A DNA stretch of 64,000 nt from Escherichia coli (GTDB taxonomy: Bacteria; Pseudomonadota; Gammaproteobacteria; Enterobacterales; Enterobacteriaceae). The DNA lies in the NCBI RefSeq assembly GCF_045037415.1, contig NZ_CP173438.1. One strand, 5' to 3'. Made by a program: the position numbers and the translations under genes. Below are positions 5,396 through 59,072 of the stretch, piece by piece. How positions within the stretch are numbered: the stretch's first letter is position 1; each line of letters opens with the position of its first letter. A model generated the notes under the pieces. The model was not told where the DNA came from, searched no databases, and saw only the letters and a list, made by a program, of their open reading frames with translations.

Positions 5396-6598
5396 ATGCA
5401 AAGTGTTGATGTAGCCATTGTTGGCGGCGGCATGGTCGGGCTGGCGGTTGCCTGCGGCTTACAGGGTATCGGCTTACGCGTTGCCGTACTGGAGCAGCGC
5501 GTACCGGAACCTCTGGCGGCGGATGCACCACCACAACTGCGCGTTTCGGCTATCAATGCCGCCAGCGAAAAATTACTCACCCGTCTTGGCGTCTGGCAGG
5601 ACATTCTCTCTCGTAGGGCCTGTTGCTATCACGGCATGGAAGTGTGGGACAAAGACAGCTTTGGTCACATCTCGTTTGACGATCAAAGCATGGGCTATAG
5701 CCATCTTGGGCATATCGTTGAAAACTCAGTGATTCACTACGCGCTGTGGAACAAAGCGCTGCAGTCGTCAGATATCACTCTGTTGGCCCCCGCAGAATTA
5801 CAGCAGGTCGCCTGGGGTGAAAATGAAACCTTCCTGACGTTGAAAGATGGCAGCATGTTAACGGCGCGTCTGGTGATTGGCGCGGACGGCGCTAATTCCT
5901 GGTTGCGCAACAAAGCCGATATTCCGCTGACTTTCTGGGATTATCAGCATCACGCGCTGGTGGCGACCATTCGCACGGAAGAACCGCATGATGCGGTGGC
6001 GCGACAGGTTTTTCATGGCGAAGGCATTCTGGCCTTTTTGCCGCTTAGCGATCCGCATCTTTGCTCGATTGTCTGGTCACTGTCGCCAGAGGAAGCGCAG
6101 CGGATGCAGCAGGCAGGCGAAGACGAATTTAATCGCGCGTTAAATATCGCTTTTGATAATCGCCTGGGCTTATGCAAGGTTGAAAGTGAGCGCCTGGTGT
6201 TCCCGCTAACGGGGCGTTATGCGCGCCAGTTTGCCGCGCACCGTCTGGCGCTGGTGGGCGACGCCGCGCATACCATTCACCCGTTGGCGGGGCAGGGGGT
6301 AAATCTCGGCTTTATGGATGCTGCAGAGCTGATTGCTGAACTGAAACGGTTGCATCGTCAGGGTAAAGACATCGGGCAGTACATTTACCTGCGTCGCTAT
6401 GAGCGTAGCCGCAAGCACAGCGCGGCGCTGATGCTGGCTGGTATGCAGGGATTCCGCGATCTGTTTTCCGGGGCTAATCCGGCGAAAAAATTGCTGCGTG
6501 ATATTGGTCTGAAACTGGCTGATACGCTTCCTGGCGTTAAGCCACAACTTATTCGCCAGGCAATGGGATTAAACGATTTGCCTGAATGGCTGCGTTAA
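5396..6598 (+). CDS. ubiI: 2-octaprenylphenol hydroxylase (FAD-dependent; VisC)
   Basis: 400 aa; VGGGMVGLAVA dinucleotide-binding motif; paralogue of ubiH immediately upstream. Confidence 0.92.
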   Translation: MQSVDVAIVGGGMVGLAVACGLQGIGLRVAVLEQRVPEPLAADAPPQLRVSAINAASEKLLTRLGVWQDILSRRACCYHGMEVWDKDSFGHISFDDQSMGYSHLGHIVENSVIHYALWNKALQSSDITLLAPAELQQVAWGENETFLTLKDGSMLTARLVIGADGANSWLRNKADIPLTFWDYQHHALVATIRTEEPHDAVARQVFHGEGILAFLPLSDPHLCSIVWSLSPEEAQRMQQAGEDEFNRALNIAFDNRLGLCKVESERLVFPLTGRYARQFAAHRLALVGDAAHTIHPLAGQGVNLGFMDAAELIAELKRLHRQGKDIGQYIYLRRYERSRKHSAALMLAGMQGFRDLFSGANPAKKLLRDIGLKLADTLPGVKPQLIRQAMGLNDLPEWLR

Positions 6599-7045
6599 AA
6601 ATTTCTCTTCTGCTGTTTATTTGATACCCATCACACTTTCATCTCCCGGTTTTTTCGCCGGGAGATTTTCCTCATTTGAAATAAACTAATTTCACCTGCG
6701 ATTTCGCATTATATTTTCTAATGCCACGAATTTTTGATTTAGTGTTTTTTGACATTTTTTTAGTTCTTAATGTTGTCTTATTCAAATTAACTTTCTCATC
6801 TATTTATCTTTATATAGAGATTTGTTCATTTTTTGGTTTTTTATTCTGTTACGATTTTGGCGTTTTTTAACCATAAGCTAATGTGATGATCAATTTTACC
6901 TTATGGTTAACAGTCTGTTTCGGTGGTAAGTTCAGGCAAAAGAGAACGATTGCGTTGGGGACCGGGAGTGGCTCCGATGCTGGGTTTCGTGGTGATAATT
7001 TCGCCATAGAAAAGTTGTCAGCCCCGCTTATTCAATGAGGACAAG

Positions 7046-14329: not shown

Positions 14330-14395
14330 TGCCTTTGTAGGCCTGAAAAGACACACCAGTGTCGCATCAGGCGATAAATGCCTGATGCGATACAG
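14330..14395. repeat. REP-type palindromic elements
   Basis: Inverted REP-like units (gtcgcatcaggcg / gcctgatgcgat) between the convergent stops of yqfA and ygfZ. Confidence 0.5.
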
Positions 14396-36152: not shown

Positions 36153-36202
36153 CGTCTTTCCTTAATTTCCCCTCTTCTCTGAAAGAAGAGGGGAGCTGTT
36201 AT

Positions 36203-40500: not shown

Positions 40501-40632
40501 AACAGTTTTACTTTTTACGGGTGAGTAAAACTGTTGCTCGGGAATACCAAAGATTGAGCGTTGTTGTTGGTATTCATCAAATATGCGCGTCAAAAGTTCC
40601 TCAAACGGAATGGGACGCATAATATCCCCCAT
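37534..40632 (-). CDS. ygfK: Fe-S flavoprotein oxidoreductase YgfK (putative selenate reductase component)
   Basis: 1032 aa; dinucleotide fold [14 protein letters not shown]; C-terminal cysteine cluster CLECNYVCSKCVDVCP; 2-nt spacing to ssnA. Confidence 0.9.
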   Translation of the reverse strand: MGDIMRPIPFEELLTRIFDEYQQQRSIFGIPEQQFYSPVKSKTVSVFGETCATPVGPAAGPHTQLAQNIVTSWLTGGRFIELKTVQILDRLELEKPCIDAEDECFNTEWSTEFTLLKAWDEYLKAWFALHLLEAMFQPSDSGKSFIFNMSVGYNLEGIKQPPMQQFIDNMMDASDHPKFAQYRDALNKLLQDEAFLARHGLQEKRESLQALPARIPTSMVQGVTLSTMHGCPPHEIEAICRYMLEEKGLNTFVKLNPTLLGYARVREILDVCGFGYIGLKEESFDHDLKLTQALEMLERLMALAKEKSLGFGVKLTNTLGTINNKGALPGEEMYMSGRALFPLSINVAAVLSRAFDGKLPISYSGGASQLTIRDIFDTGIRPITMATDLLKPGGYLRLSACMRELEGSDAWELNHVDVERLNRLAADALTMEYTQKHWKPEERIEVAEDLPLTDCYVAPCVTACAIKQDIPEYIRLLGEHRYADALELIYQRNALPAITGHICDHQCQYNCTRLDYDSALNIRELKKVALEKGWDEYKQRWHKPAGSGSRHPVAVIGAGPAGLAAGYFLARAGHPVTLFEREANAGGVVKNIIPQFRIPAELIQHDIDFVAAHGVKFEYGCSPDLTVEQLKNQGFHYVLIATGTDKNSGVKLAGDNQNVWKSLPFLREYNKGTALKLGKHVVVVGAGNTAMDCARAALRVPGVEKATVVYRRSLQEMPAWREEYEEALHDGVEFRFLNNPERFDADGTLTLRVMSLGEPDEKGRRRPVETNETVTLHVDSLITAIGEQQDTEALNAMGVPLDKNGWPDVDHNGETRLTDVFMIGDVQRGPSSIVAAVGTARRATDTILSRENIRSHQNDKYWNNVNPAEIYQRKGDISVTLVNSDDRDAFVAQEAARCLECNYVCSKCVDVCPNRANVSIAVPGFQNRFQTLHLDAYCNECGNCAQFCPWNGKPYKDKITVFSLSQDFDNSSNPGFLVEDCRVRVRLNNQSWVLNIDSEGQFNNVPPELNDMCRIISHVHQHHHYLLGRVEV

Positions 40633-52505: not shown

Positions 52506-52543
52506 CCTCTGAGAATCCGGCCTGAATTCAGGCCGGATATCTT

Positions 52544-57374: not shown

Positions 57375-57452
57375 TGGCGAATTAATCAGCAGTCAGCAGC
57401 GTGGTACTTGCTAAGGAGAGCGTAAGGTTTATAATGCCTTACGCATCTCGAA

Positions 57453-57526
57453 GCGGGCGTAGTTCAATGGTAGAACGAGAGCTTCCCAAGCTCTATACGA
57501 GGGTTCGATTCCCTTCGCCCGCTCCA
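57453..57526 (+). tRNA. glyU: tRNA-Gly (anticodon CCC)
   Basis: 74-nt sequence gcgggcgtagttcaatggtagaacgagagcttcccaagctctatacgagggttcgattcccttcgcccgctcca; cloverleaf with CCC anticodon in the cttCCCaag loop; 3' CCA encoded. Confidence 0.95.
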
Positions 57527-57842
57527 ATTTATCTTCACATCATCTACCTGCCATTTTTGTTGTATCTGATTTTCTATATTATCTTAATTCAAGCGCTTCA
57601 GACTTTTCGCAATCGCCGTAATACTTCCCCATTTTTTTGTAAATAAAAAGCGTTTACGCAATGCAATCGTCATGTATCTTAAATAGTCTTATTTAAGATG
57701 TTCAGAACTCTTTGTGTGTTTAACTGGCTGATAATTATATAATATTACGAGAGAAGTGATAGAGCGGAATAATAACAAATGAACATTATGAAAACTGGGA
57801 TGGTTCAAAATTGAAGCAATTTTGAACCATCCACAACGGATA

Positions 57843-59072
57843 TTAGCTAAAGAACATTACCGATACGCACAGGATACCCACGATCAGGGTAATCAGATTT
57901 CCGATGGAACGCCAGGGTTTAAGCGCCGGGATGAGATACGTTGACAGCGTAGGCATGATGAAAAGTATCATGGCAATGAGCGGGCCGCTGATCGCGTAAA
58001 TCATCGAAATCGCGTTCGGGTTAATGCAACAAACAATGAAGGTAATCAGCGATACCAACATAATTGATAGTGCGCGGTTAAATGCACGACTTTTCTTTAC
58101 ACCAACCTGCTGTAATGTTGTTTTGACGACCTCTGTGGCACCTTCAATAACGCCAAAGTACGTACCCAGGAATGATTTCGACATCGCAACTACTGCGACA
58201 ATAATCCCGGAAATTGACAACCATGCTGGGGCGTTCGGCAGCATAGAAAGCGCCGATAAAATGGTAACCCCTTCTTCTTTAGCCGCTTCAATATACGAAG
58301 GTGGAATAGAAAGCAGGCAGCTAAAGACAAAGAACAATACACTTATGCAGATGATGAGATAAGCGACTTTCATAATTTTTTTGCATTTATCCATAGCATG
58401 TTCGCCATATTTTTCACGTCTGTCTATGGCAAACGTAGAAATAATGGGCGTATGGCTAAAAGCGAAAACCATCACGGGAATCGATATCCATATCTGGTGA
58501 AGGGTATTCTGATTGAACTCTACCTGGGTTGTTAATAGATCAGGTTGCCAACTACCGACCAGGTAAATAGAAAGAAATAAGAAATAGGCAATCAATGGGA
58601 ATACCAAAAATCCCATTACCCGAATAGTGGCATGGCGTCCCATCAGAAAAATGAGATTCAGGATTAATACAACCCCCAGACTCACTAGCATACGGATGCG
58701 AAGATCAATAACCATATGCTTTGCCAGCTGTTCCGTAAGTGAGTTGGTAATTGCCACTGCATATATCAACACGACGACAAAAAAGGCGATGAAGTACAGC
58801 GTGGTAATCAGATTACCAATCTTCTTGCCATAGTAGTGTGTTACCGCGCCCGTTATCCCTTCACCTGCTGATGTTTTCGATGAGAGGATGAACTGGCATA
58901 AGGCTTTATGTGGCCAATATGTTAAAGGCCAGGCGACCAGAGCAGTAATAAACAGGACCACAGCCCCCGCCGAACCTAACTGAATAGGAAGGAAGAGCGT
59001 GCCTGCACCAACGGCTGTGCCGTAGAGTGCGAAACTCCACAGAGTTTCTTCTTTTGACCAAATATTAGACAT
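57843..59072 (-). CDS. yqeG: Amino-acid (Ser/Thr-type, HAAAP family) transporter YqeG
   Basis: 409-aa polytopic membrane ORF MSNIWSKEETLWSFALYGTAVGAGTLFLPIQLGSAG... Confidence 0.9.
   Translation of the reverse strand: MSNIWSKEETLWSFALYGTAVGAGTLFLPIQLGSAGAVVLFITALVAWPLTYWPHKALCQFILSSKTSAGEGITGAVTHYYGKKIGNLITTLYFIAFFVVVLIYAVAITNSLTEQLAKHMVIDLRIRMLVSLGVVLILNLIFLMGRHATIRVMGFLVFPLIAYFLFLSIYLVGSWQPDLLTTQVEFNQNTLHQIWISIPVMVFAFSHTPIISTFAIDRREKYGEHAMDKCKKIMKVAYLIICISVLFFVFSCLLSIPPSYIEAAKEEGVTILSALSMLPNAPAWLSISGIIVAVVAMSKSFLGTYFGVIEGATEVVKTTLQQVGVKKSRAFNRALSIMLVSLITFIVCCINPNAISMIYAISGPLIAMILFIMPTLSTYLIPALKPWRSIGNLITLIVGILCVSVMFFS

Follow-up and report, generated by a model that had tools for sequence, protein, structure and literature searches.

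The gcvTHP control region and its inverted repeat

The window, by which we mean the whole 64-kb stretch of E. coli DNA that was analysed, carries the genes pepP, ubiH and ubiI in this order, then a 447-bp intergenic region, and then gcvT, gcvH and gcvP; ubiI ends at position 6598. The intergenic region is 100% identical to that of E. coli SA186. The initial annotation had reported an 11-bp perfect inverted repeat with a 22-nt gap within 6860–6915 of this region, and our analysis confirms it, with arms at 6867–6877 and 6900–6910. The parts of the repeat and the gene downstream of it are as follows.

6867–6877, + strand: left arm of the inverted repeat, TTAACCATAAG
6878–6899: spacer of the inverted repeat, 22 nt, CTAATGTGATGATCAATTTTAC
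6900–6910, + strand: right arm of the inverted repeat, CTTATGGTTAA
7046–8140, + strand: coding sequence of gcvT, the regulated gene that heads the gcvTHP operon

The arms TTAACCATAAG and CTTATGGTTAA are exact reverse complements of each other, with 22 nt between them, and the same repeat is found in K-12 MG1655. Perfect complementarity ends at 11 bp, and the repeat search also returns 15-nt arms at 93%. The centres of the two arms are 33 bp apart, i.e. about 3.1 helical turns, which places them on the same face of the DNA. When the intergenic region was shuffled 5000 times with its dinucleotides preserved, 0.64% of the shuffles contained a perfect inverted repeat (arms of 11 bp or more, spacer no longer than 40 nt), which implies that the observed repeat is real and non-random. 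By the same definition the 64-kb window contains six perfect inverted repeats, compared to 0.56 expected. Of the 5399 matching E. coli genomes, 5238 carry the 44-bp unit formed by arms and spacer with an identity of at least 99%, and the repeat is fixed in at least 96% of E. coli genomes. The substitution A6869T is a natural E. coli variant in which a single outer pair is lost. We rejected a mobile or repeated element, since the window holds no further copy of the arm sequence beyond the two arms and the 44-bp unit is present in one copy per E. coli genome.

Four other perfect inverted repeats (11 bp or longer, with short spacers) are located in the window at 14362–14390, 36168–36194, 40501–40535 and 52515–52538. 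A long perfect hairpin at 57796–57834, GGGATGGTTCAAAATTG-AAG-CAATTTTGAACCATCC, lies between an open reading frame at 57401–57646 (+ strand) and one at 57843–59072 (− strand), and is likely a bidirectional terminator. At the upstream end of the intergenic region, 6641–6666 contains a GC-rich hairpin with a perfect 9-bp stem, ATCTCCCGG-N8-CCGGGAGAT, and TTTTCC after it; the terminator scan did not call this hairpin, which is probably the ubiI terminator.

GcvA boxes, putative core promoter and neighboring sites

The regulatory features around the repeat, listed by position, are the following.

6681–6695, + strand: GcvA box of site 3, ATAAACTAATTTCAC, T-N11-A with CTAAT at 6686–6690
6713–6727, + strand: GcvA box of site 2, ATTTTCTAATGCCAC, T-N11-A with CTAAT at 6718–6722
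6873–6887, + strand: GcvA (LysR-type) box of site 1, ATAAGCTAATGTGAT, T6874-N11-A6886, centred on A6880 of CTAAT 6878–6882
6895–6909, + strand: possible second, degenerate, activation-site-like GcvA box, TTTACCTTATGGTTA, suggested by its spacing
6904–6909, + strand: putative −35 hexamer TGGTTA, within the right arm and 17 bp before the −10 hexamer
6924–6932, + strand: putative extended −10, TGGTAAGTT (TGn + TAAGTT), nearly invariant across Enterobacterales
6938–6941, + strand: putative gcvT +1, at about 6940, 5–9 nt past the −10 hexamer
6940–6955, + strand: PurR operator, AAGAGAACGATTGCGT, 30 bp downstream of the repeat and separate from it

The left arm continues into an invariant block, CATAAGCTAATGTGATG, that forms a LysR-type T-N11-A box around CTAAT. 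The GcvA consensus is a T-N11-A element containing 5′-CTAAT-3′ (PMC3658693; also PMC5002191), and Wilson et al., as summarised in PMC5002191, found CTAAT in every GcvA-protected region, including the regions of 35 bp and 57 bp upstream of gcvTHP. In the intergenic region there are three copies of CTAAT, all on the + strand (at 6686, 6718 and 6878), each with a T at −6 and an A at +6 from the central A. The probability of finding three or more copies is 0.0065 in shuffles of the region. Measured from the start of CTTATGGTT, the conserved block of the right arm, the three boxes are at −214/215, −182/183 and −22. The −22 box occupies the same position in 71 of 71 Enterobacteriaceae loci and is absent from nine Erwiniaceae/Yersiniaceae loci. 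Examined as a GcvA site, 6873–6887 thus contains T-N11-A with CTAAT and is conserved in orthologous promoters. Taken together, the consensus and the fixed −22 box imply that the inner half of the left arm (CATAAG) flanks a GcvA recognition box at 6873–6887.

Nearly all of the 80 Enterobacterales loci, those of Erwiniaceae and Yersiniaceae among them, have 214 or 215 bp between the CTAAT of site 3 and CTTATGGTT. The leader between the CTTATGGTT block and the ATG, by contrast, ranges from 102 to 224 nt across the same loci. The small gene yqfI (b4754 in K-12; 6672–6755, − strand, divergent to gcvT) encodes 27 amino acids, MSKNTKSKIRGIRKYNAKSQVKLVYFK. Its coding sequence overlaps the CTAAT boxes at 6686 and 6718, so that GcvA sites 3 and 2 are located inside a translated small gene.

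The right arm carries the putative −35 hexamer. TGGTTA matches TTGACA at 3 of 6 positions, and a scan for consensus sigma-70 promoters found none, as expected for an activator-dependent promoter. We place the start of transcription at about 6940, because this is consistent with the conserved −10 and with the reported positions of the CRP, GcvA and PurR sites. Counted from there, the PurR site, which reportedly lies at about +1 to +16 and overlaps +1, agrees with 6940–6955. The two upstream CTAAT boxes, with centres at about −252 and −220, presumably correspond to GcvA sites 3 and 2, which are reported to span −271 to −214. A CRP-like sequence, TTTGATACCCATCACA (TTTGA-N6-TCACA), is located at 6620–6635, just past the ubiI stop codon, with its centre about 313 bp upstream of the putative +1, and presumably represents the CRP site of the gcv operon, reported at about −313. 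The Lrp-binding region, reported to span −229 to −92, would end upstream of 6850 and of the repeat. The footprint of GcvA site 1, reportedly −69 to −34 (Wilson et al. 1995; Wonderling et al. 2000), would equal 6871–6907. With the same start site the repeat spans −73 to −30, and its centre at −51.5 is that of the reported site 1 footprint.

The initial annotation had named GcvA, Lrp and PurR as regulators of this promoter and had suggested comparing the repeat with footprinted GcvA and Lrp sites. For GcvA the overlap stands: the left arm enters the consensus box and, given a +1 at about 6940, the repeat and the reported site 1 are co-centred. It does not stand for Lrp and PurR, which by the reported coordinates both miss the repeat, with the Lrp region ending upstream of 6850 and the PurR box at 6940–6955. 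We therefore rejected both as binders of the repeat. The promoter-distal part of the reported Lrp region, 6800–6862, is highly polymorphic among E. coli lineages, and the window shows about 20 differences from K-12 and 2EC1 there. Most E. coli genomes are only 90–95% identical over the 447-bp intergenic region, and 6863–7003 is identical in the three compared sequences.

A PurR-box-like ACGATTGCGT noted earlier near 6945–6960 proved to be real; the operator AAGAGAACGATTGCGT lies slightly to the left, at 6940–6955. A PurR ChIP-chip study, in which the motif is the 16-bp palindrome ACGNAAACGTTTGCNT, gives precisely this sequence for gcvT-gcvH-gcvP (PMC3159470). The operator matches the motif at 11 of 14 specified positions and, with its ChIP-chip listing, qualifies as a PurR operator. 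Positions 6945–6955 are invariant across species, with the exception of 6949, which is A in the E. coli box (AACGATTGCGT) and T in 99% of other Enterobacteriaceae (AACGTTTGCGT). The other genera consequently match the PurR consensus more closely than E. coli does.

Conservation and history of the two arms

The comparative set consists of 80 Enterobacterales gcvT loci, one genome per species, of which 71 are from Enterobacteriaceae and nine from Erwiniaceae/Yersiniaceae, and the upstream regions were aligned. Pairing was counted over 68 distinct sequences, with the window included. The 70 distinct Enterobacteriaceae species share four conserved blocks: 6865–6888 (TTTTggtCATAAGCTAATGTGATG), in which CATAAGCTAAT (6872–6882) and ATG (6886–6888) are invariant; 6900–6908 (CTTATGGTT); 6919–6935 (TTCGGTGGTAAGTTCAG); and 6939–6957 (AAAG..AACGTTTGCGTCG). 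The middle of the spacer, 6889–6899, is freely variable in these species.

Across Enterobacteriaceae, the inner 6 bp of the arms (CATAAG at 6872–6877 and its counterpart CTTATG) and the 22-nt spacing are kept. Escherichia alone is complementary at 11 of 11 positions; among the remaining 66 distinct Enterobacteriaceae sequences the score is 3 to 10 of 11 and mostly 7 to 8, because the left arm reads TTGGTCATAAG in most genera. At positions 6869–6871 the left arm has AAC in Escherichia only and GGT in most other genera. The variation at these positions across species comprises transitions only (purine-purine-pyrimidine), and several lineages have partial AAC-like states. The expectation that the repeat would be conserved in enterobacterial gcvT upstream regions is borne out for the inner 6 bp and the spacing but fails for the full 11-bp complementarity, which is restricted to Escherichia. 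A perfect local dyad, GGTCAT-N11-ATGACC, centred on A6880, is present in 26 of the 68 distinct sequences, and E. coli retains only 4 of its 6 pairs.

We searched for covariation by counting pairs in the alignment. For the long stem, with G-U pairs allowed, none was found: 91.8% of the cells are paired, compared to 92.5% after shuffling of the columns. The local stem likewise shows none (80.9% paired versus 80.4% in column shuffles). The conserved property is the sequence and not the pairing.

The histories of the two arms differ. The right-arm block CTTATGGTT does not vary in any of the 80 Enterobacterales loci, even in families without a left arm. In the nine Erwiniaceae/Yersiniaceae loci the right arm is 100% conserved and the −215 and −183 boxes are kept, with the −22 box and the left arm absent. 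The presence of the right arm where both the left arm and the CTAAT box are absent implies that the arms evolved separately. The right arm is part of the ancestral core promoter, and the left arm together with the CTAAT box was added in Enterobacteriaceae. The 11-bp symmetry arose by three transitions, from GGT to AAC at 6869–6871, in the Escherichia lineage.

The right arm is conserved over 9–11 consecutive bases across families, which exceeds the needs of a −35 hexamer with 3 of 6 matches. This over-conservation suggests that the right arm probably binds something besides sigma. The CTTAT of the right arm follows the CTAAT of the left box by 22 bp, and by analogy with known GcvA sites the arm may also act as a second, degenerate GcvA box. 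Serratia and Edaphovirga have the right arm within a 15-bp dyad of its own, TTAAC-N5-GTTAA. In long-term stationary-phase E. coli, one mutation disrupting the “known sigma70 −35 hexamer” of gcvT rose in all five populations, and promoter mutations in gcvA were contingent on it (PMC8233507; bioRxiv 10.1101/2024.03.21.586114). If the −35 is TGGTTA at 6904–6909, this gcvT mutation falls in the right arm.

Interpretation of the repeat and comparison with known systems

The initial annotation took the repeat for a long symmetric element of the kind bound by dimeric regulators, and this does not hold. Arm centres 33 bp apart are too far from each other for one dimer, and the symmetry is confined to Escherichia, shows no covariation and joins arms with separate histories. 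A single-dimer operator was rejected because the spacer has 22 nt, whereas about 0–10 bp would be expected between the arms; a single inverted-repeat operator was also rejected, as the symmetry is not kept across species and the arms do not co-occur. Alternatively, the arms could be the outer half-sites of one bipartite two-fold operator, occupied on the same DNA face by a GcvA tetramer (a dimer of dimers, possibly with GcvR), with the symmetry in E. coli selected for stronger repression. Such an operator would account for the spacing of about 3.1 turns between the arm centres, for the invariance of the inner 6 bp and the 22-nt spacing in Enterobacteriaceae, for the coincidence of the repeat centre with the reported footprint centre and for the near-fixation of the unit in E. 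coli. It would also fit the GcvA half-site-like pentamer in each arm, where ATAAG resembles ATTAG and CTTAT resembles CTAAT (motif in PMC5002191), and the strictly purine-purine-pyrimidine variation at 6869–6871. The fixation of the symmetry in at least 96% of E. coli genomes, together with the partial AAC states in other lineages, is compatible with selection on the symmetry itself. However, the outer 5 bp are complementary in Escherichia only and do not covary, the right arm is equally conserved in families without the left arm or the CTAAT box, the left hexamer of most genera is a better partner for the nearby ATGACC than for the distal arm, and the natural E. coli variant A6869T loses one pair. 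We regard a bipartite operator as unlikely. Similarly little weight falls on a related scenario for the origin of the module, in which the CTTATGGTTAA block would be older than site 1 and would serve as an unrecognised promoter-proximal docking site for GcvA looped from sites 3 and 2; Enterobacteriaceae would have added the CTAAT box later as a repression switch, and full two-fold symmetry of the outer half-sites would then have followed in Escherichia.

Two further explanations have still lower probability. The repeat could be an operator of another regulator, acting on gcvTHP or on the divergent yqfI, in which case a right arm conserved more deeply and fully than a weak −35 needs, and the dyad of Serratia and Edaphovirga, would be explained. 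This is very unlikely, as the window holds no second copy of the arm, the element occupies one place per E. coli genome, and the known GcvA motif already explains the left block. A literature search for another factor at the position of the repeat found no link. Least credible is a functional hairpin, either an RNA stem-loop in a transcript that reads through from ubiI or starts upstream, or a DNA cruciform. On the + strand the 11-bp stem has predicted energies of −13.1 kcal/mol as RNA (z −3.45) and −7.3 kcal/mol as DNA (z −3.12), and across 68 species, with G-U allowed, 91.8% of the cells pair on this strand. But this pairing equals that of the shuffles (92.5%), with essentially no compensatory changes; the element lies between the ubiI terminator hairpin (6641–6666) and the putative start, no transcript is expected across it, it has no U-tract and no terminator call, and a 22-nt loop disfavors cruciform extrusion. 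The absence of covariation and of a terminator call and the location upstream of the putative start also led us to reject a structured RNA or an intrinsic terminator.

We consider it probable that the repeat is the promoter-proximal control module of gcvTHP, composed of two adjacent, separately evolved elements that are perfectly complementary by chance in Escherichia. The perfect 11-bp symmetry itself is most likely not a functional unit. The repeat is better described as the place where GcvA site 1 meets the −35 region of gcvTp; both have been known for a long time, and the repeat is ordinary biology. In this module, the CATAAG of the left arm would be the left flank of the T-N11-A box at 6873–6887, through which GcvA recognises site 1. 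The right arm would supply the weak −35, TGGTTA, of the extended −10 promoter TGGTAAGTT. With a GcvA tetramer or a GcvA/GcvR complex on about −69 to −34, the −35 region would be covered and RNA polymerase would be hindered there. Combined with GcvA bound to sites 3 and 2 and with DNA bent by Lrp, occupancy of site 1 would hold the promoter in a repression loop. Site 1 is reportedly needed for repression by GcvA/GcvR when glycine is absent or purines are present. By the title of Wonderling et al. 2000, cited in PMC3658693 and PMC5002191, site 1 of gcvTHP is reported to be necessary for repression and dispensable for activation. In the accepted model, the GcvA/GcvR complex forms a repression loop at gcvTHP in the absence of glycine, together with bending by Lrp, and glycine frees GcvR, upon which GcvA activates gcvTHP (PMC13104608). 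The layout of the locus agrees with this model, with a high-affinity LysR-type box at about −60 and, after it, a block overlapping the −35.

Beyond annotation the significance of the repeat is small, as it marks the promoter-proximal GcvA site and the −35 region of an E. coli promoter that is among the most thoroughly dissected. The comparison adds that the symmetry is specific to Escherichia, that site 1 is apparently restricted to Enterobacteriaceae, and that Enterobacterales share a fixed −35 block at a fixed distance of 214/215 bp from GcvA site 3. Such findings may steer work on how the GcvA/GcvR/Lrp loop docks at the promoter.

Among known systems the closest is GcvA site 1 of gcvTHP itself: the locus is the same, the sequence is identical to that of K-12, T-N11-A with CTAAT is present and the centre is shared with the reported footprint. 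The difference is one of definition, since site 1 was defined in the literature by its footprint and CTAAT and not by the 11-bp repeat, which overhangs the reported footprint by a few bases on both sides. Another likeness is to IR1 and IR2 between gcvA and gcvB (ATTAG-N5-CTAAT, centred at −65 and −43 from gcvB and 22 bp apart; PMC5002191), where the spacing is the same as that between CTAAT 6878 and CTTAT 6900. The box centres are at about −60 and −38 at gcvT, compared to −65 and −43 at gcvB, and at both promoters the proximal box, which is putative at gcvT, is degenerate and abuts or overlaps the −35. The two differ in output: the gcvB arrangement activates, whereas site 1 of gcvT is reported to act in repression only, with activation coming from sites 3 and 2, some 160–215 bp upstream. 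The layout also resembles the generic LysR-type architecture of recognition and activation sites, in which a strong T-N11-A dyad box is followed by a weak box at the −35. It departs from this architecture in that gcvA is neither adjacent to gcvT nor divergent from it, and in that distant sites and bending by Lrp are needed at gcvT (PMC13104608).
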